Below are positions 15,651-47,842 of a DNA stretch of 64,000 bases, one piece after another. The stretch spans positions 10,767 to 74,766 of the forward strand of contig CBDUXP010000013.1 of the NCBI GenBank assembly GCA_965371225.1, read 5' to 3'. Below the pieces are notes generated by a model. That model was not told the DNA's origin. It searched no databases and saw only the letters and a program-made list of their open reading frames with translations. The DNA comes from an uncultured bacterium (GTDB taxonomy: Bacteria > Abyssobacteria > SURF-5 > CBDUXP01). The translations under genes and the position numbers were made by a program. Position 1 is the stretch's first letter; each line of letters opens with the position of its first letter.

Positions 15651-15719
15651 GATGCGGGCGCGTCCCTTGCGGCGCGCGGGGGACCGGCGGATACTGGGGG
15701 CACGGGGGGACAGGGACGC

Positions 15720-17267: not shown

Positions 17268-17539
17268 CGCTATCACTAACGGCATTCCCGCACCCGAAGT
17301 GCCGATTCGCGGCGCCCGGCGCCGCGGCGTGCATAACATGCACGCAGTCGTGCACCCAATCCCGTAACACTTGTCAACCGACACACGGTAGTTCGGGTCA
17401 TGCACCGCCGGATGTGATGTTCGGTGGTACGTTTCCTGTGGAAGACCAAACGGGGGCAGCGAGTACCTGTAGGGGGAGAGACGGCGCCACGGGAAGGGCG
17501 CCGGACCCCAGGGATGCTCGACCTCTCTTAGGACGGATT

Positions 17540-18931: not shown

Positions 18932-18939
18932 GCGTCCGC

Positions 18940-24106: not shown

Positions 24107-24774
24107 GCCGCCGTGCCACCGCGCTGTTGGCCGCGGCGTGTGCGTTGGTCGGCGTCGCGAACGTCGCCCGGGGCCTCTACATCCCCGCGAAGGCACTGCT
24201 CGCGCAACGGCTCATTCAACGCTCGTGGACGCAGGTCGAGGCGGGCCGGGCGTGGGCCCCGCCGTGGCCGTGGGCGGACACGCAACCGGTGGCGCGCATG
24301 CGCGTGCCCGCACACGGGGTGGACTTGTTTATCCTCGCGGGCGACAGCGGCCGCACCCTCGCGTTCGGCCCCGGACACGCCACGGAAAGCGCCCGGCCCG
24401 GGGAGCCGGGCACCGTGCTCGTGAGCGGGCACCGGGACACTCACTTCCGGTTCCTGCGCCGGGTGGCGCCGGGCGAGGTGGTCGTGCTCGAGACCCCCGA
24501 CCGCGCGCAGCACCGGTATCGGGTGACGCGGGCCGAGGTTGTCGACAGCCGGGACGCGCTGATCGTGCACGACCCGGACGTGGAGCGGTTGGTGCTGGTG
24601 ACGTGCTATCCGTTCGATACGCCGGTGCCCGGCGGGCCGCTGCGATACGTGGTCACCGCTTCCCCGGAACCGGATGCGCCGGTCACCGGGCTTGCGCTAA
24701 CTCGTGCGGGGATCCAGGAGCACGCCCGGGTTCAGGATGCCCGCCGGGTCGAGTTCCGCCTTCGCGGCGCGTAG
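24103..24774 (+). CDS. Class GN sortase (TIGR03784-like)
   Basis: GTGA overlap with the target stop; YIPAKALLAQRLI..W, WPWADT.PVAR, LAFGPGH, SGHRDTHF (His), LVTCYPF (Cys), LRYVV (Arg). Confidence 0.9.
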   Translation: MSRRATALLAAACALVGVANVARGLYIPAKALLAQRLIQRSWTQVEAGRAWAPPWPWADTQPVARMRVPAHGVDLFILAGDSGRTLAFGPGHATESARPGEPGTVLVSGHRDTHFRFLRRVAPGEVVVLETPDRAQHRYRVTRAEVVDSRDALIVHDPDVERLVLVTCYPFDTPVPGGPLRYVVTASPEPDAPVTGLALTRAGIQEHARVQDARRVEFRLRGA

Positions 24775-26322
24775 CGCCCGGGCGAACGGTTCCGGCCGCT
24801 GCCGGTCGTACCACGGCCGGTGATCCCGGCCGACGGCGTGGTGGTGCGTGATCGTCCCGCCGTTACTCAGGACCGCCTCGGCGGCCGCCTGTTTGATCTC
24901 GTCCCACTGTTCGATCTGGCTGCCCTTCTTCCCTTCGGCGAAGATGGTGAAGTACGGCGCCGGGCCGTCCGGGTACAGGTGCGTGAACCGGCAGGTCATG
25001 TCCCCCTGGCCGCATACGCCCTTGATCGCTGCCCGCCCCGCCTCCATCACTTCGTGGTAGAACGCTTCGAACGCGCTCCAGGGGATCGCGGTTTCGAACG
25101 TTTCGCACACGATGCCCATGCGAATGAGCGTGTCGCGCATGTACGGCGCCTGCAGGAACGCTTTGCGCCACGCGCCTGCCGCGCCGCCGCGCGTGGCGGC
25201 CGCATCCGTGCGCGTTTGGCCCGCGTCCTCGTCCGCCTCACCGCCCGCATCGCGGCAGCATTCCAGCGCGCGCGCCATCCACGGGTCCAGGGGATGGTCC
25301 GCCGATTCGAACCCGAGCACCAGGATGGCGTGCTCGCCGGTGCCCGCGCCGCTGTTGGCCGCTTCCGCTGCGTCGAGCAATCGACAGTTGGTCGGGTAGA
25401 GCCCGCTTTGGGCCAGCTGCCGCGCCGCCTCCGCTCCGCGGAGGAACCCGTCCTCGCCGGGAAACCGGACCGGGGCGGACGCGCGATAGACGGGCCGGTC
25501 CTGCAGGCGCATCCACGCTTCGGTGATGATGCCCAGGGTGCCCTCCGAGCCGGCGAGCAGGCGATCCGGGCTCGGCCCCGCGCCCGAGCCGGGCAACCGC
25601 CGACTTTCCAAGATGCCCGTGGGAGTTACGCACCGGAGCGATTCCACGAAGTCTTCGATGTGCGTATATAAGGTGGCATAGTGGCCCCCGGAGCGGGTGG
25701 CGATCCAGCCGCCGAGGGTCGAAAATTCGAACGACTGCGGGAAGTGGCGCAGGGTCAGGCCGTGCGGCCGCAGCGCGTCTTCGAGTGCCGGGCCGAAGAT
25801 GCCGGCCTGAATGCGCGCCGCCCGCGACATCTTGTCGATCTCGATCACCTGGTCCAGCTCGCGCAGGTCGATGGTGACGACGCCGGCGTAGCTGTCGTCC
25901 ACGGCGCCTGGCTCCACGCCGCCCACCACGGAGGACCCGCCGCCGTAGGGGATCGCGGCCGCGTTGGCGTCCGTGCACCAGTCCAGCAACGCCACCACGT
26001 CCCCTTCCGTGCGGGGTAGCGCAACCAGGTCCGGCGGCGCGTCGAACTCGCCCCGGGCGCCGCGCACCACGTCCCGAAAAGACTTGCCGTACGTGTGGGC
26101 GGCCCGTTCGTAGGGATCGGTGGTGCAGATGCCGGCCAGCGGCGCCGGCACGGTCAAGCGGGGGGCGCGGAGGTCGAGATCGTCCAGGCGCGGTTCCGGG
26201 TCGGGGGTGAGGTCGGCGCCGGGGAAATGGTGTTGGACCACGTAATCGACCATGACCTGCTGCATGGCATCGTCCGTCTGGTCCGCGTACCCCCAGCCCC
26301 AGAATTTGCGCTGCCGTCCCAT
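24697..26322 (-). CDS. FAD-binding oxidoreductase, alkyl-DHAP synthase (AgpS)-like
   Basis: FWGWG N-terminus, PYGGGSSVVGG, RHFPQSFEFSTLGGWIATRSGGH, GSEGTLGIITE, THLYPDGPAPYFT, GGTITHHHAVG. Confidence 0.85.
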   Translation of the reverse strand: MGRQRKFWGWGYADQTDDAMQQVMVDYVVQHHFPGADLTPDPEPRLDDLDLRAPRLTVPAPLAGICTTDPYERAAHTYGKSFRDVVRGARGEFDAPPDLVALPRTEGDVVALLDWCTDANAAAIPYGGGSSVVGGVEPGAVDDSYAGVVTIDLRELDQVIEIDKMSRAARIQAGIFGPALEDALRPHGLTLRHFPQSFEFSTLGGWIATRSGGHYATLYTHIEDFVESLRCVTPTGILESRRLPGSGAGPSPDRLLAGSEGTLGIITEAWMRLQDRPVYRASAPVRFPGEDGFLRGAEAARQLAQSGLYPTNCRLLDAAEAANSGAGTGEHAILVLGFESADHPLDPWMARALECCRDAGGEADEDAGQTRTDAAATRGGAAGAWRKAFLQAPYMRDTLIRMGIVCETFETAIPWSAFEAFYHEVMEAGRAAIKGVCGQGDMTCRFTHLYPDGPAPYFTIFAEGKKGSQIEQWDEIKQAAAEAVLSNGGTITHHHAVGRDHRPWYDRQRPEPFARALRAAKAELDPAGILNPGVLLDPRTS

Positions 26323-26478: not shown

Positions 26479-27342
26479 ATGCGCACCAGCACTGCTCCCG
26501 ACACGTCGGGCCGGGCCGTCGGCACCAGCCGCATCCTCGCGGATGCCCACGTGCATATCTACAGCTGCTTCGCCCTGGCCCGGTTCTTCGACGCCGCGTG
26601 GACCAATTTTTCCCGCGAGGCGGCCGGCGGGCCGTTTACCGGTGTGCTGCTGCTGGCGGAGACCGCGGAGGATGACTGGTTCGCCGCGTTGGGGGTTCGA
26701 GCCGATGCGGGCGAGTCCGTCGATGGGCAGGCCGCGACTCCCTGGCGCCCGCAGCGCACGGGGGAAGCGGAATCCTTGCGCATCGCGGGGCCGGAGTCGG
26801 AGAGCTTGTTGCTGATCGCGGGACGCCAACTCGTCACGCGCGAGCGGCTCGAGGTGTTGGCGCTGGGGACGGCGGCGCGGTTCGACGATGGGCTGCCCCT
26901 GTCGCAGGCGGTGGACCAAGTGCGCGCGGCGGGCGCCGTGCCGGTGCTGCCCTGGGGCTTCGGGAAGTGGTGGGGCCGGCGGGGCGCGGTGCTCCGGGCG
27001 TACCTGGAGACGGTGGCCGCCGGGGCGCTTTTCGTGGGGGACAACGGCAGCCGCCCGCAGTTTGCGCCCACCCCCGCCCCCTTCCGGCAGGCGGCCGCGC
27101 GTGGGGTCCGCATGTTGCCGGGGACGGATCCCCTGCCGCTGGCGGCGGAATGCACCCGGGTGGGGAGCTATGGCTTTTACGTGCGGGCGTCCCTGGACCC
27201 TGAACATCCCGCGCGCTCCGTGCGGGCGGCGCTGCAGGCTTCGGGCGTGGCCCCCGTGGCGTACGGTGCGCGCAAGACGCCGCCCCTGTTTGTCTGGCGG
27301 CAGGCGGCCCTACAGTTCCGGCAGGCGGGCAGGGCGACGTGA
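26479..27342 (+). CDS. Hypothetical protein with a degenerate PHP-type metallohydrolase fold
   Basis: N-terminal ADAHVH; G(R)Q..T..RLEVLALG; terminal PGTDPLP where PHP proteins have GSDAH; GTGA coupling to the downstream GT4. Confidence 0.5.
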   Translation: MRTSTAPDTSGRAVGTSRILADAHVHIYSCFALARFFDAAWTNFSREAAGGPFTGVLLLAETAEDDWFAALGVRADAGESVDGQAATPWRPQRTGEAESLRIAGPESESLLLIAGRQLVTRERLEVLALGTAARFDDGLPLSQAVDQVRAAGAVPVLPWGFGKWWGRRGAVLRAYLETVAAGALFVGDNGSRPQFAPTPAPFRQAAARGVRMLPGTDPLPLAAECTRVGSYGFYVRASLDPEHPARSVRAALQASGVAPVAYGARKTPPLFVWRQAALQFRQAGRAT

Positions 27343-28541
27343 GGCCGGGTATGCGCGCGCTGATGGTGGAACCGCAGCCGTTCTTCTCCCCGCGCGGGTC
27401 CCCGCTGCAGGTGTATTACCGCGTGCAGGTCTTGGCGGAGCTGGGCGTGAAAGTGGACCTGCTCACGTACGGGGAGGGGCAGGACGTGGACCTCCCGGGC
27501 GTGCGGATGATCCGCATCCCCCGCTTCGCGAGTCTCGGCCACGTGAAGACGGGCCCGTCCCTGCTCAAGGCGTTTCTGGACGTGTTTCTGGCGCTCTGGA
27601 CGATCGGGCTGCTGTTGCGCCACCGGTACGATTTCGTACACGCGCACGAAGAGGCGGTGTTCTTCTGCCGCTTCTTGAAGCCGCTGTTCCGCTTCAAGCT
27701 CGTGTACGAGATGCACTCGCAGCTGCCGGAGCAATTGCGCAATTTCGATTTCACCACGTCCCGCGCATTGATCTGGGCGTTCGAGCGGCTGGAAGCGACC
27801 GCGCTGCACGCTGCCGATGCCGTGATCACCATCTGCCCGGCGCTGGCCGATTACGCGACGGGGGTGCTCGCGCAGCCGGACAAGCACGTGCTGATCGAGA
27901 ACTCGCTGTTCGAACCGGTCAAGCTGGCCGGGACGGCGGGGGACGGCGCCTCGCCCCCGGCCGGGGCCAATGGGGATGCGGGCGTCGACTTGCCCGCCGG
28001 CCGCCCGCTCATCGTGTATGCGGGAACCCTGGAGGCGTACCAGGGCATCGAGTTGCTGTTGCGCGCGTTCCGGCTCTTGCGCGCGGACGAGCCGGCGGCG
28101 TTCCTGCTGGTGGCGGGCGGCACGGCGGATCACGTGGAGCACTACCGCGCCCTGGCGGCGGACCTGAAATTGCGCGACGACTGCGTGTTCACCGGCCGCG
28201 TGCCGCCGGCCGTGGCGAAGGCGTTCTGTGCGCGCGCCGACGTGCAGGTGTCGGCCCGCATCGAGGGCATGAACACGCCGCTCAAGGTCTACGAGCAGTT
28301 GGCCAGCGGGGTGCCGCTCGTGGCGACGGATATCTACGCGCACACCCAAGTGCTGGACGACGCCGTGGCTTTTCTCGTCCAGCCCACGCCCGAGGCTTTC
28401 AGCGCGGGCTTGGCCGCCGCGCTGGGAGACGCGCCTGCCGCGGCGCGCAAGGTGGACGCCGCCAAGCGCCTCTACGACCAAAAGTATGCACGGCACGCGT
28501 ACGTGGCCAAGATGGAGGAGTTCCTCGGGAAGCTCGCGTGA
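27339..28541 (+). CDS. Glycosyltransferase family 4
   Basis: HAHEEA, VYAGTLEAYQGIELLL, EGMNTPLKVYEQLASGVPLVAT (E-x7-E). Confidence 0.9.
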   Translation: MRPGMRALMVEPQPFFSPRGSPLQVYYRVQVLAELGVKVDLLTYGEGQDVDLPGVRMIRIPRFASLGHVKTGPSLLKAFLDVFLALWTIGLLLRHRYDFVHAHEEAVFFCRFLKPLFRFKLVYEMHSQLPEQLRNFDFTTSRALIWAFERLEATALHAADAVITICPALADYATGVLAQPDKHVLIENSLFEPVKLAGTAGDGASPPAGANGDAGVDLPAGRPLIVYAGTLEAYQGIELLLRAFRLLRADEPAAFLLVAGGTADHVEHYRALAADLKLRDDCVFTGRVPPAVAKAFCARADVQVSARIEGMNTPLKVYEQLASGVPLVATDIYAHTQVLDDAVAFLVQPTPEAFSAGLAAALGDAPAAARKVDAAKRLYDQKYARHAYVAKMEEFLGKLA

Positions 28542-28814
28542 ACGCTGCCGGCGGCTGCCCTGCCGCCATCTTCGGTAGGGGCGGGCCGCTTCAGTGAGTC
28601 CCGGCCGGGGCCGATAGGTAATCGGGGTCGGTGCCGGAGGGGGGATAGTTTCAACGCAGTCGTAGAGGGAGTCCGTGTCCGGCGCAAGCCGCGGGGCCGG
28701 CGTTCCGGGAGAGCCGCAGGGGGGGCATCGTGCTCATAAGCTGTTGTAGGTCTGGTACTTCCGGTCGTAGGCTCTTTCGGGAACGTTGCCGGTGACGTCC
28801 CGGAAAACAGAACA

Positions 28815-28851
28815 TTTAGTGACTAAACAGCGTCATGGATAAATCGTTGCA
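28815..28851 (+). promoter_or_regulatory. Palindrome TTTAGT-G-ACTAAA followed by a weak sigma-54-like element TGGATAAATCGTTGCA
   Basis: Perfect 6-1-6 palindrome at 28815-28827; GG-N10-GC spacing at 28836-28851 but with A instead of C after GG; lies in the ~560 bp gap before the epimerase operon. Confidence 0.35.
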
Positions 28852-29105
28852 AGACAGGAACTTGGCTCGTACGGGTGGTAGACTTGGGCACGCTGGAAGC
28901 GAGTCCGCGACCCGCCGCCCGGACCTGATCCCGCAGATCTGTCGTCGCGCGTCCCCCGTGCACAGCCCGGGCTGGTGCGCTGGAGGCCGGGGTGTCGGCG
29001 CGGATCGGCCGTTTGGGGCTTGGTCCGGCGGCTCCGGCTGCCGGGGGGTGGGGGCTCCCAGGCAATGGTAGGGTTCAGAAGGATTGCAGGATGGAGGAGG
29101 ATGGT

Positions 29106-30092
29106 ATGACCCCCACGGTGTTGGTGACGGGGGCCAACGGCTACACCGGCAAGTACATGTGCGAGTATTTGGCCCAGCAGGGCGTTGCCACGCGGGGCAT
29201 GTACTGGCCGCCGGACGGGGAGCCGGATTACGCGCACGAGAACCTGGAGCTGGTGCCCGGGGACCTGCGCGATCGGGAAACCCTGAAGCCGGCGCTGGAC
29301 GGTATAGAGGTGGTCTACAACATCGCGGCGCTCTACCGCACCATGACCGTCTCGGAGCAGATGTACTTCGATGTGAACGCCGCCGGGGTGGGAAACTTGG
29401 TGGAACTCGCCGCCGAAGCCGGCGTGCGCCGGTTCGTCCAGTGTTCGACCATGGGGGTGCACGGTACGGTGGCCGACCCTCCCGGGACGGAAGAGGCGCC
29501 CATCCAGCCGGACGATTACTACCAGCTCACGAAACTGAAGGGCGAAGAGATCGCCCGCGAACTGGGCCAGCAGTTGAACTTGCCCATGGCCATCGTGCGC
29601 CCGGCGGCCATCTACGGGCCGCGGGAGACGCGGTTCCGCAAGCTGGCGCAGCTGATCAGCCGCGGCCGGTTCGTCATGTTCGGCGATGGGGAGGTGCTGT
29701 ACCACTTCGTCCACGTGCGGGACCTGTGCGACGGATTCATCCTCTGCGCTGAGCTGGACCAGGCCGTGGGCGAAACCTACCTCATTGCCGACGACCACGC
29801 CGTGACGCTGAATACCGTGGTGCGGGTGCTAGCCGAGGCCACCGGCAAGAAGCCGCCGCGTCTGCACGTGCCCTTCGCCGTACTGCAAACCGCGAGCATC
29901 GCCTGCGAGTTTGCGTGTAAGCCTTTTGGGATTTCGCCGCCGCTGCACCGCCGCAGGGCCGCGTGGTTCCGCTCTACCCGGTCGTTCGATATCGGGAAGG
30001 CGCGGCGCGAGTTGGGGTACGAACCGAAAGTGAAGACGGAGCAAGGGCTCACGGAGATGGTGCAGTCATTCGCGGAGGCCGGCTGGTTATAA
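29106..30092 (+). CDS. NAD-dependent epimerase/dehydratase
   Basis: VTGANGYTG, CSTMGVHG, YQLTK (YxxxK), RPAAIYGP, FVHVRDL; GGAGGAGG RBS before 29106. Confidence 0.9.
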   Translation: MTPTVLVTGANGYTGKYMCEYLAQQGVATRGMYWPPDGEPDYAHENLELVPGDLRDRETLKPALDGIEVVYNIAALYRTMTVSEQMYFDVNAAGVGNLVELAAEAGVRRFVQCSTMGVHGTVADPPGTEEAPIQPDDYYQLTKLKGEEIARELGQQLNLPMAIVRPAAIYGPRETRFRKLAQLISRGRFVMFGDGEVLYHFVHVRDLCDGFILCAELDQAVGETYLIADDHAVTLNTVVRVLAEATGKKPPRLHVPFAVLQTASIACEFACKPFGISPPLHRRRAAWFRSTRSFDIGKARRELGYEPKVKTEQGLTEMVQSFAEAGWL

Positions 30093-30135
30093 CGCCGCAG
30101 CCGGGCCGGGGGGCCCGGGGTGGAGGGACAGACGT

Positions 30136-30819
30136 ATGAGCCACAGCCCGGTTGCCGAGCACGAACTCGTGACGCGCGAACGGTTCGACGCGTGGTCGGA
30201 TTCCTACATGTTCGACCACGTGCGCCCGTGGCTCGCGTACAACCAGCGGCAGGTGCTCGGGCGGATCGACTGGGCGCGGACGCGGCGGGTGCTGGACATC
30301 GCGTGCGGCAGCGGGTACGCGGTCTACGAAGCCGGCGCGCGTTTGCGCGCGACCCCCGGCGGCATGGCGTGCGGCTGCGACATTTCCGTCGCCATGCTCG
30401 GCCGGCGCACCCCGGCGGGGGACGGAGCACCGTCCCGCACCTATTTCCAGGCAGCGAGCGCGCAGGCCCTGCCCTACGCGACCGGCACGTTCGATGCCGT
30501 GCTTTGCACCACTGCGTTCCACCACTTTCCCGACCCGGCGGCCGCGCTCACCGAAATCCGGCGGATCCTGCGGCCCGGGGGGCAGCTCCTCATCGGCGAC
30601 ATCTGCCGCAACCTGTCCCTGGGCACCTGGGTGTGGGACCGGTTGCACCGGTGGTTCGAGCGGGCCCACGTGCAGTACTACCGCACGGATGAACTGTTCG
30701 CGCTGTTCGCGGGAGCGGGATTCGAGGACGTGGCCCTGACGGAACTGGCGCCGTCGTACAGCGAAACCAAGAAGCTAGTGCGCAAGTTCGCGCTCTTCCG
30801 CGCGGTCGCGCCGGTGTAA
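30136..30819 (+). CDS. Class I SAM-dependent methyltransferase
   Basis: VLDIACGSG motif I, ASAQALPY..GTFDAV, FHHFPDP. Confidence 0.88.
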   Translation: MSHSPVAEHELVTRERFDAWSDSYMFDHVRPWLAYNQRQVLGRIDWARTRRVLDIACGSGYAVYEAGARLRATPGGMACGCDISVAMLGRRTPAGDGAPSRTYFQAASAQALPYATGTFDAVLCTTAFHHFPDPAAALTEIRRILRPGGQLLIGDICRNLSLGTWVWDRLHRWFERAHVQYYRTDELFALFAGAGFEDVALTELAPSYSETKKLVRKFALFRAVAPV

Positions 30820-30836
30820 GGGGGCGCCTGCGTCGC

Positions 30837-32618
30837 ATGCTCGTCCTGGGACTCACAGACGGTATCACCTGCGGCGCCGCGGTCATCGCGGACGGCGTGG
30901 TGCTCGCGGCGGTCAATGAGGAGCGCCTGACGCGGTTGAAGATGGCGTATGGCTTCCCGCGGCAAGCGATCGCCGAGGTGCTGCAGCTCGCCGGCGTGGA
31001 GCCGGCTGATATCGATCGCGTGGCGGCCGCGACGATCAACAACCACTTCTTCGACGGCGTACGCCCCTTTGACGGGTGGATGGCCCAGGACAAGGGCTTC
31101 ATCCGGAACGCGGTGTTCAATTCTGCCGGGCGCTTCAGTTTTCTCATCGATAGCGTGCCGGGACTCGAGGCGCTGTATTACACCGCCCGCAAGCCGGTAT
31201 TCGCTGCGCGGCGCCGCGCCATTCGCCGCATCATGGCGCAGGAGTTCGGGATCGCGGCACCGGTGCGGTTCGTGAACCACCACCTGGCGCACGCCACGAG
31301 CGCGTACTTCACCAGCGGCTTCGCGGACGCGACGGTGGTAAGCATGGACGGCGGCGGCGACGGCGCTTCCTCCCACATCTACGAGGTGCGGGACGGCCGG
31401 TTCCGCCGGATCGGGTACACGAGCGCCTTCAATTCCCTGGCGAATTACTACGCGTATATGACGCACATCTGCGGGTTCAAAGCGCAGAAGCATGAGGGCA
31501 AGATCACCGGTCTCGCCGCATACGGCGAGCCGCGGTACGTGGACCTGCTGGATACGTTCATCACGTTTCGGGACGGCGCGCTGCGGAACGTGGGGGGCGT
31601 GGTCTTCTCCGCGGCTGTGGAGGCGCTGCGCCGGCGCCTGCCCGCCGACTGGGCGAGGGAGGACGTGGCGGCCAGCATCCAACTGCATGCGGAGCGCTTG
31701 GCCGGGCAATACGTGCTGCACCACCTGGGGCTCGACGCGCGCGCAAACGTCGCCTTGGCCGGCGGCCTCTTCGCTAACGTGCGCATCAACCAATGCATCG
31801 CGGAGTGCGACGGCGTGGACCGGCTGTTCGTGCACCCCGGCATGACGGATGGCGGCCTCGCCGTCGGTGCCGCGCTGACCGCGTGCATGCGCGGCGGTGA
31901 AGACAGCCACATGCCGCGCGACCCGGGCGTGATCCCGGACGTGTATTACGGACGGGGGTACAGCACGGCGGAGATCGAGCGGGCGCTCACGAGCGACGGG
32001 CTCGCCTTCTCGCGGCCGGCGTGCATCGAGACGGAGATCGCGCGGCTGCTGGCGGAGGGCTACGTGGTCGCGCGGTTCGACGGGCGGATGGAATACGGAC
32101 CGCGGGCGCTCGGCAACCGCTCCATCCTGTATCAGCCGGCCGATCCCAGCGTGAACGATTGGTTGAACGACCGCCTCCAGCGGACGGAGTTCATGCCGTT
32201 CGCCCCGTCAACGGTGATGGAATGTGCCGAGGAGTTTTACGAGAACGTGGAGGTGGCGCGTGAGGCCGCGCGGTTCATGACGGTGACGTACGGGTGTACC
32301 GCGCGCATGAAGGATACGTGTCCCGGGGTGGTGCACGTGGACGGGACCGCCCGGCCCCAGCTCGTCCGCCGCGAGGACAATCCGAGCTACCACCGGATCA
32401 TCGACGCGTTCGGCAAGCTCACGGGGGTGCCGACGATCATCAACACGAGTTTCAACATGCACGAAGAGCCGATCGTATGTTCGCCGCAGGACGCGATTCG
32501 CGCGTTCCGGCTGGGCCACTTGGACTACCTCGCGATTGGAAATTGCCTCGTGCCGTCTCCGACCCCCGTCACCCGTCCCCTCCGGCCCATGCCGGTGGAC
32601 CGGGCGGCGATGACCTAG
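30837..32618 (+). CDS. Carbamoyltransferase (NodU/CmcH/TobZ family)
   Basis: EERLTRLK, HHLAHATSAY, MDGGGD, HEGKITGLAAYG, AGGLFANV, DGGLAVGAA, EYGPRALGNRSIL, FMPFAP, HVDGTARPQ, INTSFNMHEEPIV. Confidence 0.95.
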   Translation: MLVLGLTDGITCGAAVIADGVVLAAVNEERLTRLKMAYGFPRQAIAEVLQLAGVEPADIDRVAAATINNHFFDGVRPFDGWMAQDKGFIRNAVFNSAGRFSFLIDSVPGLEALYYTARKPVFAARRRAIRRIMAQEFGIAAPVRFVNHHLAHATSAYFTSGFADATVVSMDGGGDGASSHIYEVRDGRFRRIGYTSAFNSLANYYAYMTHICGFKAQKHEGKITGLAAYGEPRYVDLLDTFITFRDGALRNVGGVVFSAAVEALRRRLPADWAREDVAASIQLHAERLAGQYVLHHLGLDARANVALAGGLFANVRINQCIAECDGVDRLFVHPGMTDGGLAVGAALTACMRGGEDSHMPRDPGVIPDVYYGRGYSTAEIERALTSDGLAFSRPACIETEIARLLAEGYVVARFDGRMEYGPRALGNRSILYQPADPSVNDWLNDRLQRTEFMPFAPSTVMECAEEFYENVEVAREAARFMTVTYGCTARMKDTCPGVVHVDGTARPQLVRREDNPSYHRIIDAFGKLTGVPTIINTSFNMHEEPIVCSPQDAIRAFRLGHLDYLAIGNCLVPSPTPVTRPLRPMPVDRAAMT

Positions 32619-32630
32619 AAGGACCCGCGC

Positions 32631-33656
32631 ATGACGCAGATTCACACACCACAGCCGACCGGCCAGGACACGACGATCCAGGAGCAGGTCGTCGCCATGT
32701 ACGAGCGCCATCCCTTCCCGGCGTACACGGACAAGTTCCGCAAAGCGTCCGAGGAGATGGTGCTGAAGATGCGGCTCCTGGGCTTGGCCGAGGCGGCGTA
32801 CACGAACAAGCGGATTCTCGACTGCGGGTGCGGCACGGGGGAGTTCACCTGCTGGTACGCGGCGCGCGGGAACGACGTGACGGCGGTGGACTTGTCCGGC
32901 CCCTCCATCGCGCACGCGAAGAAGTACGCGGCCAGTTACGAGCTGGAGGACCGCATCACGTTTCGGCAGCACTCCGTGCTCGAGTTGGACTTCCCGGACG
33001 ACTCGTTCGATATCGTCTATTCCTACGGCGTCCTGCACCACACGCCGGATCCCTACAAAGGCTTCCAGAATATGGTGCGCGTGTGCAAACCGGGCGGTAT
33101 CGTCATCGTAAGCGTCTACAGCCTGTACAGCCGGTTCATCCATCGGGAGAAGCAGCGGCTGATCGGTTGGCTGGCGGGGGACGACATCGAGGCGCGGTAC
33201 CGGTGGGGCAAGCGGCTCTTCCCGCTGACGGCGCGTAAACTCAAGCTGCGCGCGCACGACGACAGCGACGCAGTGTTGTACGACCAGTTCAGCCAGCCGC
33301 ACGAATCCCTGCACACGGCCGGGGAGATTCTCGGTTGGTATCGGGAGCATGGCCTGGAGTACCTGGGGGCGTTTGGGCCGCTGCGGATTCGCGATTACAT
33401 CTACGCGGCGAGTTTGCCGGAGTACCAGGTGTTCGAGCGCACCTTCGACGGTTACGTGCTGTCGCGCTTGGCCAGCGGCTGTCTCAAGGGCCTGGCGTCG
33501 GTGATGGGCTACCGGCCGGAGGAGGCGCACCCGTTCCCGTATCCCTCAGGCGTGTCGCAGGTGATGAGTCAGCTCGGTTGGGCCGCCTTGGGCTTGCGTT
33601 TCAGTTGCTTCAGCATCGCCGGCCGGAAGCCGCCGTCCGAGGCGCCCGCCGGATGA
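32631..33656 (+). CDS. Class I SAM-dependent methyltransferase
   Basis: ILDCGCGTG, VDLS, FDIVYSYGVLHHTPDP, LYDQFSQPHE. Confidence 0.88.
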   Translation: MTQIHTPQPTGQDTTIQEQVVAMYERHPFPAYTDKFRKASEEMVLKMRLLGLAEAAYTNKRILDCGCGTGEFTCWYAARGNDVTAVDLSGPSIAHAKKYAASYELEDRITFRQHSVLELDFPDDSFDIVYSYGVLHHTPDPYKGFQNMVRVCKPGGIVIVSVYSLYSRFIHREKQRLIGWLAGDDIEARYRWGKRLFPLTARKLKLRAHDDSDAVLYDQFSQPHESLHTAGEILGWYREHGLEYLGAFGPLRIRDYIYAASLPEYQVFERTFDGYVLSRLASGCLKGLASVMGYRPEEAHPFPYPSGVSQVMSQLGWAALGLRFSCFSIAGRKPPSEAPAG

Positions 33657-33696
33657 CCCCAGGCTCCCGGCGCCCCGCGGATCTGTCGGCCACGTC

Positions 33697-34770
33697 ATGA
33701 ACGCGGCGCACACCACCCCGTCGGCGTCCGGCGCCGCGCCCGCCACGCGCCATGGCATGCGGTTGCTGCGCGTGGCCATTAGCGTAGGGCTGCTGTACTA
33801 CATCCTGCGCAGCACCTCCCTCCAGGACATCGGTGCCGTCTTTGCGCGTGCGCTCGACCGGTGGCCGCTGTTGCTGGTGGCCACCGTGCTGCCCGGCCTC
33901 GGCACGCTGGCGGCAGTCCTCCGGTGGCGGGTGCTGCTCCGGGGGCTGGGCGCGCGGCCGAGCCTGGGCAGTCTCGCGCACGCGTATCTCGTCGGCCACT
34001 TCTTCAACCAGTTTCTGCCGTCCACCATTGGTGGGGATATGGTGCGCGGCTGGTGGATGAAGCACACGGTCGACTCGCCCGTCCAAAGCTTGACGGTGGT
34101 GGGGCTGGACCGGGTGATCGGGATGGTGGGGATCTGCGCGGTGGGGCTGCTCGCCGCCGTGCTGAGGCCGGACACCATTCGCGAGCTGCCCGCCTTCTGG
34201 GCCGTGCTGGGCCTCGCTACCCTCGGCTTGGTGTTTCTCGCCTTGATGTCCCATCCGCGCACCGCCGCTCTCGGGCGTCGGCTGACCGTCATCCCGCTCT
34301 TTCGTCCCTTGCAGGAGACGGGCCGCACCGTGTACGACGCGCTGCATACCTTTCGCCGCAAGCGGGCGCACCTCATGGCCGCGCTCCTATACTCCATGAT
34401 CCTGCAGCTCATCATCATCGGGCAATTCGTCCTGTTGTCCGTGGCGTTCGACTTGCCCGTGTCTCGCACGGGACTTGCGGCAATCGTTCCCGTCGTCACG
34501 CTGGTCAGCCTGCTGCCGCTCGCGATTAACGGCATCGGGTTGCGCGAGAGTGCCCTCGCCGTGCTCGGGGCGCCCCTCGGCCTCGCCGTGGGCGACGCCA
34601 TCGCGCTCGCTTGGGCCTTCATCTTCTTTACGTTCTTGTACGCGTTGGTCGGCGGCGGGCTGTACCTCGTCGGTCGGCGAGATCGCGCCCCCGCGGCGCC
34701 GGCTTCCCCGGTCGGGCCCCAGGTAGGTGAGGTGCGCCACGGCAGCGCGCCCGCGGGAGGGCGCGTATGA
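33697..34770 (+). CDS. Lysylphosphatidylglycerol-synthase TM-domain (flippase-like, UPF0104) protein
   Basis: [42 protein letters not shown]. Confidence 0.88.
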
Positions 34771-35573
34771 GCGGCGTTGCGGGGCACTTCGATGCCGCCC
34801 TGGCGGCGCCCGATCGGCATTCCGCGAAGCTGGCCCACGCGATCACGGATAAGTCCGTCTCCCTGCTGCAGCGGTATCGCGAGTTCGTGCTCGGTACCGA
34901 GGGCGGCTTGCGCGCATTGCTCACCTACGAGTTCGTCACCCTCTTCCTCACGCCGATGCCCGGGGCGCTGGGGCTGGCGCTCCGGCGGCTTTTCTTTCCG
35001 GCAATCCTCGGCCGAGTGGGCCGCGGGGTGGTCTTCGGGCGGAGCCTTACCGTGCGCCACGGCCGCAAGATCCGCCTGGACGACAACGTGGTCATCGACG
35101 ACTACGCGGCGCTGGACGCCAAGGGGGCGCACAACGACGGGATCGACATCGGCGCGCATGCGTTCATTAGCCGGAATGTCGTCCTGAGCTGCAAGGGCGC
35201 CAACATTCGCATCGGCCGCAACGTGACGATCGGTAACAACAGCCTGGTGCGTGCGCAGGATGACAGCCCGGTGACCATCGGGGACGACACGGTCATTGCG
35301 GCGTTCGTGGACATTGTGGGCGGCGGCAACTATCACACGAACCGCTTCGACGTGCCCATGTGGCAGCAGGGGCAGTATTCCAAGGGCGGCATCACGATCG
35401 GTGAAGATGTGTGGATCGGTTCGCACGTCCAGGTGTTGGACGGTGTCCGCGTCGGTCGGGGCAGCATCCTGGCCGCCGGCGCGGTGGTGCATCGCGACGT
35501 GCCGGACTACGCCATCGTCGGCGGCGTACCCGCCAAGATCATCGGCACGCGCGGATCGCCCCCCGGAAGCTGA
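34767..35573 (+). CDS. Hexapeptide-repeat (LbH) acyltransferase
   Basis: [IV]-G-x-x hexapeptide repeats; [30 protein letters not shown]. Confidence 0.9.
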
Positions 35574-35659
35574 GCCCGTGGCGACGGCGCGCGCCCCCCA
35601 TTTCGCAGTGCCGCGAACCCGGCGTCTCGAATCCCGCGGGGTGCGGGCGGAGGCGCGCC

Positions 35660-37213
35660 GTGCCGCTCCCTGAACGCGCGCCCGCCACCCTGGCCCTCGA
35701 ACGCTTCGATCTCATCGTGGTCGGTGGCGGCATCTACGGCGTCATGCTGTGCCTCGAAGCCGTGCGCCGCCGGCTGCGTCCGCTCCTGGTGGAACGTGCG
35801 GACTTCGGCGGCGCCACCAGCCACAACAGCCAACGCATCGTCCACGGCGGATTGCGATACCTGCAATCCGCCGACCTGCCGCGGTTTTACGAATCCGTGC
35901 AGGAGCGCCGGTGGTTCCTGCGGACGTTTCCGGATTTCGTGCAGCCCCTGCCGTGCCTCATGCCGCTCTACGGCGCGGGGCTCCGCACGCCGGGGCTGCT
36001 GCGTCTCGCGCTGGCGCTGAACGATCTCGGGTCCGCGCGCCGGAACGTCGAGGTCCCGCGCGACCGGCATATTCCGCCGGGCCGCATCCTGGACGCGGCC
36101 GCGACGCGGGACCGGTTCCCCGGCGTGGACACCCGGGACCTGCGGGGCGGGGCGCTCTGGCATGACGCATTAATGCCCAGCGCGCCACTGCAGCTCATCG
36201 AGACGTTGCGCTGGGCCTGCGAGCGCGGCGCGGCAGCGCTTAACTATGTGGAAGCGCAGGGGCTGATCGAGACGGCCGGGCGCGTCGCCGGCATCCGCGC
36301 GCGGGACCTGGTGGATCAACAGGATCTGGAATTCCACGCCGACGCGGTCGTGAATGCCGCCGGCCCCTGGGCGCGGCAGTTTTCCGCGGCGTGTGGCCAT
36401 GAACATCCTCCCCTGTTCGAACCCGCCTTGGCGTGGAACGTGGTGTTCCGCCGGGAGGCGCTGGCCGACGCGGCCCTCGCGGTGGCGCCGCGACGGCGGG
36501 CCGCACAAACGTATTTTCTCGTGCCGTGGAAGGGGGCGCTGCTGGCGGGCACAGGCCACGCCCCCTGGCGCGGCGGGCTCGACCGCCCCGGCCCGACACC
36601 CGAACAACTGCTGGAGTTCATCGCCGACTTGAACGCCGCCGTGCCCGGCCTCGAGTTGACCCCGCACGACGTGCATCGCGTGTTCGCCGGTTTACTCCCC
36701 GCGACGCGGGCGGACACGAGCGAGCCCACCACGCGCGAAGTGATCGTGGACCACGGCGCACGCGGCGGGCCCGGGGGCTTCTTCAGCCTCAGCGGCGTCA
36801 AGCTCACCACCGCGCGCCGGATGGCCGACAAAGTGTTGCGGCGTGCATTTCCCGCCGCCGTGCCCCTCACCGCCGCCGCGTTCCCGCGTCCCGCTCCCGC
36901 CGTGACGGCGCCGGAGTACCCGTACTTCTGGATGCCGCCGCCCGGTGACGAGGCGTGGCAAGCGGACCTACGCCGTGCGGCGGCCGATGAGGCCGTGCAA
37001 CATTTGAGCGACCTACTGCTGCGCCGGTCGAACCTGGGGGACAATCCCGACCGTGCATTCCACGTCGCGCCGGACGTGTGTCGCCTCCTGGGATGGGACG
37101 CGGGGCGTACCGCGCAGGAACTGGCGGACCTGGCGAATCAGCTCGGGCGGCCCGGCGGGGCAAGCGCGTCGGACCCGGCCACGGCGGCTGCGGCCGCCCG
37201 CCGACGCACGTAG
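35660..37213 (+). CDS. FAD-dependent glycerol-3-phosphate dehydrogenase/oxidase family (GlpD-like)
   Basis: DLIVVGGGIYG, DFGGATSHNSQRIVHGGLRYL, VNAAGPW, GVKLTTARRMA, LSDLLLRRS; GTG start after GGAGG. Confidence 0.82.
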   Translation: MPLPERAPATLALERFDLIVVGGGIYGVMLCLEAVRRRLRPLLVERADFGGATSHNSQRIVHGGLRYLQSADLPRFYESVQERRWFLRTFPDFVQPLPCLMPLYGAGLRTPGLLRLALALNDLGSARRNVEVPRDRHIPPGRILDAAATRDRFPGVDTRDLRGGALWHDALMPSAPLQLIETLRWACERGAAALNYVEAQGLIETAGRVAGIRARDLVDQQDLEFHADAVVNAAGPWARQFSAACGHEHPPLFEPALAWNVVFRREALADAALAVAPRRRAAQTYFLVPWKGALLAGTGHAPWRGGLDRPGPTPEQLLEFIADLNAAVPGLELTPHDVHRVFAGLLPATRADTSEPTTREVIVDHGARGGPGGFFSLSGVKLTTARRMADKVLRRAFPAAVPLTAAAFPRPAPAVTAPEYPYFWMPPPGDEAWQADLRRAAADEAVQHLSDLLLRRSNLGDNPDRAFHVAPDVCRLLGWDAGRTAQELADLANQLGRPGGASASDPATAAAAARRRT

Positions 37214-37743
37214 GCCGCGCCCAGCGCCACCGGCGCGAAAAGAACCACCTCCCGGCCCAGGGCCGCGAGGTTGTACCAACTCATCAGCCCGCCCATCCAT
37301 GCGAGCAGGCCCGGCTCGACCGCGGGCGGCCGGCGGACGCCGAGCAGCAGTTGCACGGTAGAGAGGTAATGCGCTTGGCTGAACGGCGCGAACAGGGGCA
37401 GTCCGTGCGGAGCCACCACGTCGGGGCCGCAGAGGTCCAGGGCCAGGTGCGACGCGTACGCCACCGTGAACGCAACCCCGTCGCGCCACCAGCGCTCCGT
37501 CCCCCGGCTGCACCAGAGGGCGGCGGCCAGGCCGGCGAGCAGGGCCGCTGCCAGACTGTGGGTGAATTGTTGGTGATAGAGGTTCGGCTGGCCGAGCAGG
37601 GCGCCGGGAAGAAAGTCGAGGTCCGGACCGATCGCCAGCCCGACGCAGAGGCCCAGCCGGCGCTTGGCCGCGGCATCGCCCGGTCGGTCCGCAACCGCGA
37701 AAATCGCGTACCCGATCAAGCCATGGGCGAGTGGCGACGCCAC
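37138..37743 (-). CDS. Membrane-bound metal-dependent hydrolase (YdjM/DUF457-like)
   Basis: MASPLAH, PDLDF, HQQFTHSL, SHLALD, G.PLFAPF. Confidence 0.85.
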   Translation of the reverse strand: MASPLAHGLIGYAIFAVADRPGDAAAKRRLGLCVGLAIGPDLDFLPGALLGQPNLYHQQFTHSLAAALLAGLAAALWCSRGTERWWRDGVAFTVAYASHLALDLCGPDVVAPHGLPLFAPFSQAHYLSTVQLLLGVRRPPAVEPGLLAWMGGLMSWYNLAALGREVVLFAPVALGAAYVRRRAAAAAVAGSDALAPPGRPS

Positions 37744-39155: not shown

Positions 39156-40631
39156 GTGAGCGGCGTCGGCCAGCGAATCGTCAAGCATTCGTTCGTGTAC
39201 GGGATCCACGTGGTCCTGCGGCGGGTGGCGTCCATCCTCATGCTGCCCGTCTACACGCGCTACCTGACACCGGCGGACTACGGCACCCTCGAGCTGCTGA
39301 GCATCACCACCGAGGTGGCGGCGCTGGTGTTGGGTATAGGCCTGAATGCCGCGCTGTTCAAGTTTTTCAGCGACGCGGAATCCGACGAGGAACGGTCGGC
39401 CGTCATCAGCACCATCCTCATCCTCGTGATCCTGTTGTTCCTGTCCGGCGCGGCGGTGGGTATCGCGTGTGCCGGCCCCCTCTCGGCCCTCGTCTTCGGG
39501 ACGGTGGAGTACGCCGGGCTGTTCCGCGTTGTGTTCATGACCTTCTTTTTCCTGGCTGTGACGCAGGTCGGCTTGCGGCATCTCCAGGCGCACCAGCGGT
39601 CGGGGTTCTTCGTGCTCGTGGGCCTCGGTCTCGTGGCGCTGCAACTGTCGCTGAACGTGTACTTTCTCGTGGCGCGCGGCCTGGGCATCCGGGCGCTGCT
39701 CTACGGCAATCTCATCGCGCAGGCGGTGACGGCCACGCTGCTGATGGGTGCGATGGTGCGCGAGGTCGGCGTGCGCTTCTCCGTCCCGCTCGTCCGCCCG
39801 CTCGTGCGGTACGGCGCGCCCCTGATCGTGGTGAACCTCTGCGCGTTTGTCTACACGTTCGGCGATCGGTATTTCCTGAACCAGTTCGCGAGCACCGCGG
39901 ACGTGGGCCTGTACTCGCTGGCGTACCGTTTCGGGTTTATGCTCACGTTCCTGCTCCAGCCGTTCAACCGCATGTGGGCGGCGGAGCGCTTCGAAGTCGC
40001 GAAGCGGCCTGAGGCGCCGCAGGTGTACCGCCGGGTGTTCAACTACTATCTGTTCTTCCTGTTGTGCGCCGCGTTGGGCATCGCGCTTTTCGCCCGGGAT
40101 GCCATCTACATTCTGGCCACCCCGGAATTCCACCCGGCCTGGCGCGTGGTGTGGATCCTGGTGCTCGCGTACACGGTGTCCTCGGTCACCTCCTTCGGCT
40201 TGATCGGGGTGCTGGTTTCCGGCCGAACGGAACAGAACAGCGTGGCGACGTTCATCGCGGCCGTCGTGGCGCTCGCCGCGTACGCCCTGCTGATCCCGCG
40301 GTGGCACAGTACGGGCGCGGCGGTCGGCACCCTCCTCTGCTTCTGCGTGCGCCACGTGATCCTCATCCACTACTCCCAGCGGCACATCCGCATTCCGTAC
40401 GATTGGAACGCGATCCTCCGCATGGCGGCGCTGGCGGCGGGGTTGCTCACCGTGTCGCTGCTCGCGCCGGTCGAGCGCCTGCCGTTGTCCCTCGGGCTCC
40501 ACGCCGCGCTCTGGCTGGCGCTCCCGGTGGGCGTCTATTTCAGCGGCGCGTTCCCCGCTGCGGAGCGCGCGCAGTTCCTGGCCCTGCTGGCCAACCCGCG
40601 CCGGACCCTGCAGGGCATCCTCGCGGCGTGA
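39156..40631 (+). CDS. wzx: Wzx-type oligosaccharide flippase
   Basis: About 12-14 TM; LPVYTRYLTPADYG, DRYFLNQF..VGLYSLAYRFG, NALLIPRW-like segment. Confidence 0.85.
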   Translation: MSGVGQRIVKHSFVYGIHVVLRRVASILMLPVYTRYLTPADYGTLELLSITTEVAALVLGIGLNAALFKFFSDAESDEERSAVISTILILVILLFLSGAAVGIACAGPLSALVFGTVEYAGLFRVVFMTFFFLAVTQVGLRHLQAHQRSGFFVLVGLGLVALQLSLNVYFLVARGLGIRALLYGNLIAQAVTATLLMGAMVREVGVRFSVPLVRPLVRYGAPLIVVNLCAFVYTFGDRYFLNQFASTADVGLYSLAYRFGFMLTFLLQPFNRMWAAERFEVAKRPEAPQVYRRVFNYYLFFLLCAALGIALFARDAIYILATPEFHPAWRVVWILVLAYTVSSVTSFGLIGVLVSGRTEQNSVATFIAAVVALAAYALLIPRWHSTGAAVGTLLCFCVRHVILIHYSQRHIRIPYDWNAILRMAALAAGLLTVSLLAPVERLPLSLGLHAALWLALPVGVYFSGAFPAAERAQFLALLANPRRTLQGILAA

Positions 40632-42873: not shown

Positions 42874-42893
42874 CCCCCCCCTCCGGGGGCGCG

Positions 42894-47553: not shown

Positions 47554-47814
47554 ATGGCGAGCAGAGCAGGGGGGGAATCGCCGGTTCCGGCCGACGGGGA
47601 AATCCTGACGACGGAGGAGGCCTGCCGGTTCCTGAAGATCGGCCGCACCAAGCTGTGGCAACTCACGCAGGCCAATGAAGTCCCGGCCTACCGCGTCGGC
47701 AACAGTGCGCGCAGCGAGCTGCGGTACCTGCGCTCCGAGTTGCTGGCGTGGCTGTCGGGCAACCGGCTGACCGGGAAGCGGGCGCCCAAGGAAGCGCAGC
47801 CGGATCATGGGTAG
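47554..47814 (+). CDS. Small excisionase/BldC-like HTH (HTH_17) DNA-binding protein
   Basis: ILTTEEACRFLKIGRTKLWQL..VPAYRVG..LRYLRSELLAWL is the typical winged HTH_17 pattern. Confidence 0.85.
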   Translation: MASRAGGESPVPADGEILTTEEACRFLKIGRTKLWQLTQANEVPAYRVGNSARSELRYLRSELLAWLSGNRLTGKRAPKEAQPDHG

Positions 47815-47842
47815 CCGGCGCGCTCCGGCGCGGAGTGGCCCC

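Follow-up and report, generated by a model that had tools for sequence, protein, structure and literature searches.

What does a compact run of seven tailoring genes build, and does it do so as a unit of its own? The question is raised by a 64,000-nucleotide stretch of DNA from an uncultured bacterium of the phylum Abyssobacteria (assembly GCA_965371225.1, contig CBDUXP010000013.1, positions 10,767 to 74,766), which was analyzed at its full length and is called the window below; coordinates refer to it unless another sequence is named. At 29106-37213, on the plus strand, it encodes an extended short-chain dehydrogenase/reductase (SDR), a methyltransferase (MT1), a carbamoyltransferase (CT), a second methyltransferase (MT2), a UPF0104 membrane protein, an LbH acetyltransferase and a GlpD-like flavoenzyme. 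The initial annotation had treated these genes as a cassette with no glycosyltransferase of its own, which makes one decorated monosaccharide on a lipid carrier. Comparison with related loci identified them as the decorator-rich central part, variable in its content, of a module of ~13 genes that is horizontally mobile. The module core consists of a GT4 glycosyltransferase (GT4a), the SDR, the GlpD-like enzyme, an AsnB-family amidotransferase and a pair of ArnC-like GT2 glycosyltransferases. UPF0104 is frequent, while a PHP-fold protein, a YdjM-family protein and a PMT_2-type GT-C glycosyltransferase are less so. Carbamoyl-, methyl- and acetyltransferases (LbH), together with radical S-adenosylmethionine (SAM) enzymes, are interchangeable decorators. 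We tentatively read the module as an elaborated Arn/Gtr/Agl-type pathway that builds, decorates, flips and transfers a small lipid-linked envelope sugar, with a probability of roughly 45%.

The genes were followed into other genomes from three independent anchors. With the carbamoyltransferase as the first anchor, 80 loci carrying homologues at 42-71% identity were collected, their neighbours were clustered, and a jackhmmer pass was added; 36 of these loci, with the full 10 kb on both sides, formed the full-length subset. The loci originate from Gemmatimonadota, Phycisphaerae, Nitrospirota, Chloroflexota, Acidobacteriota, Myxococcota, Pseudomonadota, Latescibacterota, Binatia, Woesearchaeota and other taxa, and the gene set is spread over at least ten phyla. 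Clustering identified a GT4 gene in 46 of the 80 loci, an SDR in 41, AsnB in 30, the GlpD-like gene in 24, an ArnC-like gene in 22, and PHP-fold and YdjM genes in 10 each. UPF0104 homologues were detected by jackhmmer in 31/80, and LbH was rare (2/80). The full-length subset contained GT4 (24 loci), SDR (21), UPF0104 (20), AsnB, the GlpD-like gene and ArnC-like GT2 (14 each), Wzx (11) and PMT_2-type GT-C (9). Significant partners of the GlpD-like gene were AsnB (p = 0.004), the PHP-fold protein (p = 0.008) and the SDR (p = 0.014).

Direct adjacency on the same strand was observed for CT and SDR in 16 loci, for AsnB and CT in 15, for CT and UPF0104, methyltransferase and SDR, and AsnB and GT4 in 11 each, for the two ArnC-like genes in 10, and for GT4 and SDR, and GlpD and methyltransferase, in nine each. 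The GlpD-like and SDR genes were adjacent or one gene apart in 17 loci, and YdjM was located between the GT-C and ArnC-like genes in loci L001 and L005. The exact set of seven genes recurred in none of the related loci. The best of them, L002 (Gemmatimonadaceae), carries six of the seven plus the two genes found directly upstream in the window, in the order SDR-GT4-MT1-CT-MT2-UPF0104-PHP. The block MT1-CT-MT2-UPF0104 is common to the window, L002 and L003, and its three enzymes show 55-74% identity (MT1 55-56% and MT2 72-74% to the L002 and L003 proteins).

The second anchor was the PHP-fold protein, for which 11 of 301 Gemmatimonadota genomes were positive and nine loci were newly fetched. 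GT4a was present in all nine, the GlpD-like gene, AsnB and SDR in seven each, and a carbamoyltransferase in only one; in these loci the PHP-fold gene adjoins a GT4 or a GlpD-like gene. Among the 301 genomes, eight of the 12 strongest GlpD-like matches fell within PHP-positive genomes (p = 5e-11). In several Gemmatimonadota genomes the core forms a stand-alone island flanked by unrelated sensor/kinase genes, with the order GT4-AsnB, then, in convergent orientation, the genes for an adenylate-forming enzyme, AsnB, SDR, methyltransferase, GlpD-like and PHP. Soluble adenylate-forming enzymes in or beside the Gemmatimonadota core are encoded at 3143-4555 (minus strand) of L109 and 910-2463 (minus strand) of L106; one is PaaK/CapK-like by its TSGSTG motif, without a Pfam match, and the other is an AMP-binding enzyme. 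Some versions of the module may therefore add an acyl or aminoacyl substituent.

The third anchor was the LbH gene in metagenome contigs, with homologues at 43-47% identity. All six LbH-anchored contigs of at least 11 kb carry two or more further module genes, and the neighbours of the LbH homologues include GT4a, AsnB, GlpD-like, SDR, UPF0104 and ArnC-like genes; in L128 the order is GT4a-AsnB-GlpD-SDR-UPF0104-LbH-AsnB-YdjM-ArnC1-ArnC2. The module also occurs as compact same-strand operons. The one in the cultured gammaproteobacterium Methylonatrum kenyense AMT 1 (L053; NZ_JALPKO010000008.1, 10001-19689) comprises eight genes in the order CT-PHP-GT4-MT-GlpD-SDR-ArnC-ArnC', which makes the pathway directly testable. 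The operons of L041 (MT-GT4-GlpD-MT-SDR-CT-UPF0104-ArnC-ArnC') and L013 (ArnC-ArnC'-GT4-AsnB-...-SDR-CT-UPF0104-x-GT-C) add UPF0104, and a GT-C gene is added in L013 and L001. Taken from three anchors, the genes of the cassette are therefore co-conserved in that the searches converge on the larger module, but the set of seven is not kept, and the cassette had to be abandoned as a self-contained unit.

The identity of the decorators varies in other ways as well. B12-binding radical SAM proteins are encoded near the SDR and CT genes in L023, L033, L065, L072, L073, L075 and L078, and SPASM-type ones in L013, L023 and L033; in some loci, including Woesearchaeota ones, radical SAM proteins replace or join the methyltransferases. 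A scan of 33 large unlabelled neighbours over 17 loci identified one carbamoyl-phosphate synthase.

In the window itself, the seven plus-strand genes are all present, with coding G+C at third codon positions (GC3) of 0.82-0.88 and intergenic gaps of 43, 17, 12, 40, -4 and 86 bp, so that the description as a tightly packed cassette stood, and Pfam and NCBIfam matches fit the labels given. The first gene (29106-30092) encodes an extended, HpnA-like/3-beta-HSD-like SDR, an NAD(P)-dependent oxidoreductase (Pfam Epimerase, 2.9e-41), and its ATG at 29106 is preceded by the ribosome-binding site GGAGGAGG. The best matches of this protein are HpnA (149 bits, cut-off 368) and the 'putative oxidoreductase' PDB 3wj7 (150 bits); the SDR family is thus right, but 'epimerase' was too tight a label. 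MT1 (30136-30819; Pfam Methyltransf_23/11/25) and MT2 (32631-33656; Methyltransf_11, 4.8e-27), the latter with a C-terminal extension, are class I SAM methyltransferases. They flank the CT gene (30837-32618), whose product has two domains, Carbam_trans_N (1.8e-36; positions 12-346 of 346) and Carbam_trans_C (6.2e-60; 1-168 of 170). It aligns over its full length with the solved NovN (9s2t; 252 bits), GdmN (211) and TobZ (206), and scores 121 bits against the NodU equivalog model (cut-off 1000), which does not support NodU orthology. We therefore classify it as a NodU/CmcH/TobZ-family protein and a predicted O-carbamoyltransferase.

The UPF0104/LPG_synthase_TM protein (33697-34770; PF03706, 1.6e-37, 130 bits; TIGR00374) resembles the MprF flippase domain and is a stand-alone protein with ~7 hydrophobic segments. 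Its gene is coupled by an ATGA overlap to that of the LbH (hexapeptide) O-acetyltransferase (34767-35573; Hexapep 4.1e-15; best NCBIfam matches LacA, WcaF and WbbJ). The last gene (35660-37213; DAO 4.2e-38; GlpO 2rgh, 124 bits) encodes the GlpD-like FAD-dependent oxidoreductase of the DAO family. It most likely starts at the GTG at 35660, behind GGAGG, and the open reading frame (ORF) start at 35411 is too early: the first 83 codons from that position are Arg-rich frame noise overlapping the LbH gene. A YdjM-family gene for a membrane hydrolase-like protein (37138-37743, minus strand; PF04307, 4.5e-16) converges on it with a 76-bp 3' overlap (37138-37213), in which no terminator-like hairpin was found.

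The apparent lack of a glycosyltransferase did not survive inspection of the upstream region. GT4a (27339-28541, plus strand; Pfam Glycos_transf_1 and Glyco_trans_4_4) is encoded 565 bp upstream of the cassette on the same strand and travels with it, as does the ArnC-like pair. Of all the window GT4s it was the closest to 22 GT4 genes, spread over 22 of the 80 CT loci, compared with 0-14 for each of the other six, and in L002 the GT4 gene is placed inside the cassette; the absence is thus an artefact of where the boundary was drawn. In the PDB it gave weak best matches (E 2e-6 to 4e-5) to MshA, PimA and sucrose-phosphate synthase, and it scores 76 bits against the stp3 model (cut-off 442). The 565-bp gap (28542-29105) was read in sequence and probably holds the cassette's own promoter. 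Scans of the gap and the cassette for sigma-70-like promoters, sigma-54 sites, terminators and Rfam families gave no match above chance, and operon boundaries were therefore drawn from spacing alone.

GTGA-coupled to GT4a is the gene for a PHP-fold metal-dependent hydrolase-like protein of 287 aa (26479-27342, plus strand), which matches no Pfam or NCBIfam family. In an alignment of 11 sequences D22, H24, H26, E125, D188 and D217 are invariant, and the AlphaFold2 model (pLDDT 87) has its best Foldseek matches in PsfC (7rty) and the PHP phosphoesterase TM0559 (2anu), at E ~1e-6. The model suggests that this unannotated protein belongs with the PHP-family metal-dependent hydrolases. Divergent from its gene across a 157-bp gap is a gene for a FAD-linked oxidase resembling GlcD and alkyl-dihydroxyacetone-phosphate synthase (24697-26322, minus strand). 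An alkyl-dihydroxyacetone-phosphate or ether-lipid pathway was considered and dropped, as this oxidase is co-located with the module in none of the 80 loci.

The remaining core genes lie downstream. The AsnB-family glutamine amidotransferase (45094-47040, minus strand) is of the XrtA/PEP-CTERM type (TIGR03108, 699 bits, cut-off 817), and its true start is M76, followed by Cys. ArnC1 (47807-48772, plus strand) is an ArnC/GtrB/AglJ-like polyprenyl-phosphate GT2; against the ArnC and PgfS models it scores 166 and 120 bits, respectively, which represents a family-level match under the equivalog cut-offs. ArnC2 (48769-49785, plus strand), a divergent paralogue (29% identity to ArnC1, E 7e-21), is ATGA-coupled to ArnC1 and overlaps by 44 bp the gene at 49742-51265 (plus strand) for a PMT_2 (ArnT/PMT-like) GT-C glycosyltransferase (PF13231, 4.9e-14; ~8 hydrophobic segments), which also gave a weak match to the Agl23 subfamily. 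A second GT-C had been proposed at 58702, and here the evidence agrees: the membrane protein encoded at 58702-60042 (plus strand) has the motif D42-x3-Y46 ... RxPGYP and a PMT_2 match below the cut-off (E 1.4e-4), and the top 21 Foldseek matches of its AlphaFold2 model (pLDDT 65) are all GT-C enzymes (AglB, STT3, Pmt4, AftB and PglB among them).

Orthologues of ArnC1 (44-52% identity) were found in 13 of the 80 CT loci, usually followed by a paralogue of 25-33% identity, and the pair directly flanks module genes in L013, L041 and L053. In Gemmatimonadota, 9/11 PHP-positive genomes carry close orthologues of the pair, compared with 4/27 PHP-negative ones (Fisher p = 2e-4). The correlation includes genomes in which the pair lies apart from the core, and a GT4a-type gene and an SDR then follow the pair. 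No GtrA or ArnE/ArnF flippase family was found among the window genes scanned, and the candidate flippase is the UPF0104/PF03706 protein. Its gene is 13 kb from the coupled GT2 pair and GT-C in the window, and these components are contiguous in L013 and L001.

The GlpD-like enzyme carries the most distinctive sequence change of the module. The label 'GlpD-like oxidase' holds for the DAO/FAD fold, but the GlpD/GlpO models, whose cut-offs are 352, 360 and 840, give the protein only 121-124 bits, and it lacks the Arg of the G-x-R-P motif. This residue is replaced by L, V, I, T or M in all 25 aligned family members (GLLP in the window protein) and is kept in four canonical sequences: GlpO 2rgh, GlpD 3da1 and two paralogues of the host genome (G000), on contigs C5 and C87, which read GLRP and GVRP. 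All members whose sequence spans the region retain the motif HGG(L/F/I)RY(L/V), with small deviations. Presumably the G-x-R-P Arg is a substrate contact in Escherichia coli GlpD. Since it is replaced throughout the family and kept in the canonical enzymes, glycerol-3-phosphate is probably not the substrate, and the loss fits a substrate other than a phosphomonoester.

A bolder proposal can be built on this, which we consider unlikely. The GlpD-like enzyme and its constant partner, the HpnA-like SDR, would form a new two-enzyme oxidoreductase/epimerase acting at a hydroxyl beside a lipid-sugar phosphodiester or in a glycerophospholipid head group, and would be the DAO-family counterpart of DprE1/DprE2. 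Joined by GT4a, AsnB, the PHP-fold protein and an ArnC-like enzyme/pseudo-enzyme pair, they would constitute a new cross-phylum mobile pathway to rare amidated lipid-linked sugar donors with cassette-swapped decorations (carbamoyl, methyl, acetyl and radical-SAM).

The module was acquired horizontally by its host. The host phylum comprises 11 genomes in GTDB, and the other 10 lack the PHP-fold gene and contain no CT above 42% identity (a partial match), the only near-full-length match being at 37%; CT identity reaches 63-71% in other phyla, and the acquisition is deduced from this distribution.

How, then, could the parts work together? In the window the module is split into three blocks: the first with the PHP-fold, GT4, SDR, MT1, CT, MT2, UPF0104, LbH and GlpD-like genes and the convergent YdjM gene at its end, the second with AsnB, and the third with the ArnC-like pair and the PMT_2 GT-C. 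In the Arn/Gtr/Agl-type pathway that we favour, the ArnC-like pair would load a sugar onto a lipid phosphate, most likely polyprenyl phosphate, at the cytoplasmic face, and GT4a might add a second sugar. The GlpD-like flavoenzyme and the SDR would carry out an oxidation-reduction at a secondary alcohol beside the phosphodiester, by a DprE1/DprE2-like logic, and AsnB would amidate a carboxylate. The interchangeable decorators, here two methyltransferases, a carbamoyltransferase and an acetyltransferase, would then act, UPF0104 would flip the decorated product, and the GT-C would pass it to an acceptor in the envelope that belongs to the exosortase-linked polysaccharide locus. Decoration must precede translocation across the membrane, because all the tailoring enzymes need cytoplasmic cofactors (ATP and carbamoyl phosphate, SAM, acetyl-CoA, FAD and NAD(P)). 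This combination of cytoplasmic-cofactor enzymes with a flippase-like UPF0104 protein agrees with the envelope glycan or lipid tailoring role proposed initially. Two details of that proposal were too narrow: the recurrent order ArnC1-ArnC2-GT4 allows a disaccharide as well as 'one monosaccharide', and the carrier could be a phospholipid, as in GpgSDF and HexSDF, instead of polyprenol. That the cassette supplies the GT-C enzymes is plausible through the coupled ArnC-like pair and GT-C, but co-location of UPF0104 and GT-C gives it no statistical backing.

Several observations weigh against this pathway. In the 36 full-length loci neither UPF0104 and GT-C (odds ratio 1.9, p = 0.7) nor UPF0104 and ArnC-like genes (p = 0.5) were significantly co-located, PMT_2-type GT-C homologues were found in 11 of the 80 CT loci and only by iterative profile search, and within 10 kb of several Gemmatimonadota cores there is neither a GT-C nor a UPF0104 nor an ArnC-like gene. 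For the GT4 and the PHP-fold protein, no precedent explains a role in a polyprenyl-phosphate route. Moreover, the PHP fold includes non-hydrolases, and PsfC is an oxidative decarboxylase. Flippase activity of UPF0104 is a prediction even in the GpgF and HexF systems (PMC12713373, PMC10128005). The analysis establishes which genes the module contains, their co-conservation, their horizontal spread and the sequence features of their products; each chemical step above is deduced. Finally, the module often lies inside XrtA-type polysaccharide loci, so cytoplasmic tailoring of an undecaprenyl-diphosphate-linked repeat unit is possible.

Other products can be drawn from the same genes. The alternative placed first, though still unlikely in our view, is a membrane (phospho)glycolipid of the GpgSDF/HexSDF type, an end product for which no GT-C is needed. 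The GT4 would glycosylate a lipid head group, e.g., the glycerol of phosphatidylglycerol or its phosphate precursor. Remodelling of this head group would fall to the PHP-fold, GlpD-like, SDR, AsnB, methyltransferase, CT and LbH enzymes, and UPF0104 would flip the lipid. In GpgSDF a GT4 places N-acetylglucosamine on phosphatidylglycerol, and a tailoring enzyme and a predicted UPF0104 flippase follow (PMC12713373); HexSDF obeys the same logic (PMC10128005). Several phyla have fusions of a UPF0104 domain with a GT-B enzyme, and the interaction partners of E. coli YbhN include PgpA, PgpB, PgpC and ClsB (preprint 10.1101/2022.03.11.483950). A glycolipid would also suit GT4a as the constant partner of the module, the single glycosyltransferase of the stand-alone islands, and a GlpD-type pocket that, minus one Arg, would accommodate a glycerophosphodiester head group. 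The best PDB matches of GT4a use lipid- or phosphate-bearing polyols, but these are the weak matches given above. The ArnC-like pair, which tracks the module both positionally and phyletically, is not needed in a phospholipid route, and the module recurs in polysaccharide loci with XrtA-type AsnB, deacetylase and FemAB-like genes; both points count against a glycolipid.

Tailoring of the repeat unit of a Wzx/Wzy- and exosortase-linked polysaccharide in the cytoplasm comes next and is likewise improbable. GT4a would be an ordinary repeat-unit glycosyltransferase, the SDR and GlpD-like enzyme would make or modify a precursor, the methyltransferases, CT and LbH would decorate the undecaprenyl-diphosphate-linked unit before Wzx acts, and UPF0104 would be accessory or unrelated. 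The window is furnished for this: besides an exosortase, a deacetylase and two sulfotransferases it encodes Wzx (39156-40631), a Wzy_C protein, at least seven GT4 and three GT2 enzymes; L041 is flanked by XrtA-type polysaccharide genes, Wzx homologues are present in the 11 full-length loci counted above, and polysaccharides commonly bear O-acetyl, O-methyl and O-carbamoyl groups. Such a role, however, leaves the CT-UPF0104 adjacency and the linkage of the ArnC-like pair unexplained, does not account for core islands beside kinase/sensor genes, where neither Wzx nor Wzy nor a priming transferase is encoded within 10 kb, and calls for a GlpD-like flavoenzyme that has no known role in nucleotide-sugar synthesis. 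A soluble, non-envelope small molecule, such as a glycosyl-glycerol/glyceramide-type solute or a secondary metabolite, is very improbable. It would be in keeping with the adenylate-forming enzymes of the islands, with a GT4 and phosphoesterase-like pair that resembles the synthase/phosphatase pairs for compatible solutes, and with a CT whose closest solved relatives tailor antibiotics (NovN, GdmN, TobZ). The last point is explained by the dominance of antibiotic enzymes in the PDB, and against a soluble product stand the integral membrane families UPF0104, YdjM and GT-C and the membrane-anchored ArnC-like pair, which recur with the module, and the lack of any recurrent exporter, polyketide synthase, non-ribosomal peptide synthetase or resistance gene.

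Two further readings were set aside. The HpnA- and HpnL-like matches had suggested a hopanoid side chain, which was rejected because squalene-hopene cyclase (PF13243) is absent from the host genome; among 12 module-bearing genomes tested, it was full-length in only two (G016 and G018), and G012 gave weak fragments that exceed the family cut-off only when summed. A Nod-factor-like lipo-chitooligosaccharide was discarded as well, since the GT2 at 54756 scores 52 bits against NodC (cut-off 550) and Wzx, Wzy and an exosortase are present.

The G+C content of the window is 66-72%, and real genes are marked by GC3 values of ~0.8-0.9; the host genome has 4.35 Mb, 67.5% G+C and 96.5% completeness. The exosortase (EpsH Pfam, 1.2e-39) scores 114 bits against the XrtA model (cut-off 208). 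By these profile scores the locus seems related to the XrtA/PEP-CTERM exopolysaccharide class, yet it is below every equivalog cut-off (exosortase, AsnB and GT4a). A 356-aa protein encoded between the deacetylase and a GT4 (42894-43964, minus strand) has no Pfam or NCBIfam match and no similarity to the FemAB-like protein at a comparable position in L041. An extra GT4 gene (51262-52470, plus strand) between the PMT_2 and Wzy_C genes was masked by the longer ORF 50011-52470, which has an out-of-frame start inside the PMT_2 gene; for Wzy_C, a start beyond 52106 is probable. Elsewhere in the host genome there are a second methyltransferase/carbamoyltransferase pair (contig C61:19512-22145; ~32% identity to MT2 and CT), a third carbamoyltransferase (contig C125:435-2147) and three UPF0104 paralogues (C9, C13 and C91). 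Among public sequencing runs, no RNA run matched the cassette, and only one DNA run (marine sediment metagenome) contained 5% of the sampled words. An exact search for the carbamoyltransferase in a contig index gave no record.

The individual parts and the flip-and-transfer logic of the module are known, and no described counterpart was found for their combination, for the arginine-less GlpD family or for the PHP-fold family. Loci for exosortase-linked polysaccharides are very widespread, as are stand-alone UPF0104 proteins, and the biochemistry of both is almost unexplored. What the analysis adds is the separation of a constant core from interchangeable decorators, and the identification of a neo-functionalised GlpD-type family and a Pfam-less PHP-fold family.

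The carbamoyltransferase resembles NodU/NolO, NovN, TobZ, GdmN and MoeM5 in its Kae1-like and YrdC-like domains (203-252 bits to solved members), and its pairing with methyl- and acetyltransferases recalls the tailoring of Nod factors and noviose. Moenomycin unit F, too, is tailored by such a combination, with an SDR epimerase and with amidation of the AsnB type, carbamoylation and methylation. Unlike these systems, the module is found in an envelope polysaccharide/lipid locus and not in an antibiotic or Nod-factor cluster.

In the DprE1/DprE2 system a flavoenzyme oxidase and an SDR reductase act beside a phosphodiester, and the pathway includes a phosphatase step, a small flippase and then a GT-C. 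The flavoenzyme/SDR pair of the module would share the logic of this mycobacterial route to decaprenyl-phospho-arabinose by analogy. However, DprE1 belongs to the VAO/FAD_binding_4 type and not to DAO/GlpD, DprE2 is a classical and not an extended SDR, and the module has no UbiA-type transferase.

GpgSDF of Pseudomonas aeruginosa (PMC12713373) and HexSDF of Clostridioides difficile (PMC10128005) share with the module a GT-B enzyme, head-group tailoring and a stand-alone UPF0104 protein, with tailoring in the inner leaflet followed by a flip. They are three-gene operons in which a deacetylase provides the sole tailoring step and both substrate and product are glycerolipids, whereas the module has ~13 genes, including the ArnC-like pair and a GT-C. 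The cassette itself contains no deacetylase: the closest such gene, Polysacc_deac_1 (41815-43089), lies at a distance of 4.6 kb and on the opposite strand.

In archaeal Agl pathways, lipid-monophosphate-linked sugars are tailored, e.g., by the methyltransferase AglP. A triad of an AglD-like GT2, UPF0104 and a PMT/STT3-like GT-C, with a predicted flippase role, was described in archaea by Makarova et al. 2015 (PMC5898192), and the module resembles this triad and the Haloferax Agl system in its predicted composition and in the Agl23 match of the window GT-C. It differs in being bacterial and mobile, in its location in exosortase-type polysaccharide loci, in a UPF0104 protein that is not fused to the GT2, and in a flavoenzyme/SDR pair, an AsnB and a carbamoyltransferase that have no Agl counterpart.

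The likeness to Arn, Gtr and Rgt systems lies in the ArnC-like GT2 (166 bits) encoded in a translationally coupled run with a PMT_2/ArnT-type GT-C. As with ArnD, the lipid-linked sugar is predicted to be modified in the cytoplasm before flipping, and an SDR and a polysaccharide deacetylase are encoded in the same window locus. The window differs from Arn and Gtr in that its flippase candidate is UPF0104 and not GtrA or ArnE/F, and in that its GT2 consists of an enzyme plus a divergent paralogue; the module also adds a GT4, a GlpD-like flavoenzyme, AsnB, a PHP-fold protein and variable carbamoyl, methyl and acetyl decorators. If the pathway operates as proposed, it would extend the Arn/Gtr principle of lipid-linked sugar, flippase and GT-C to heavily tailored donors, and UPF0104 would gain a defined substrate.

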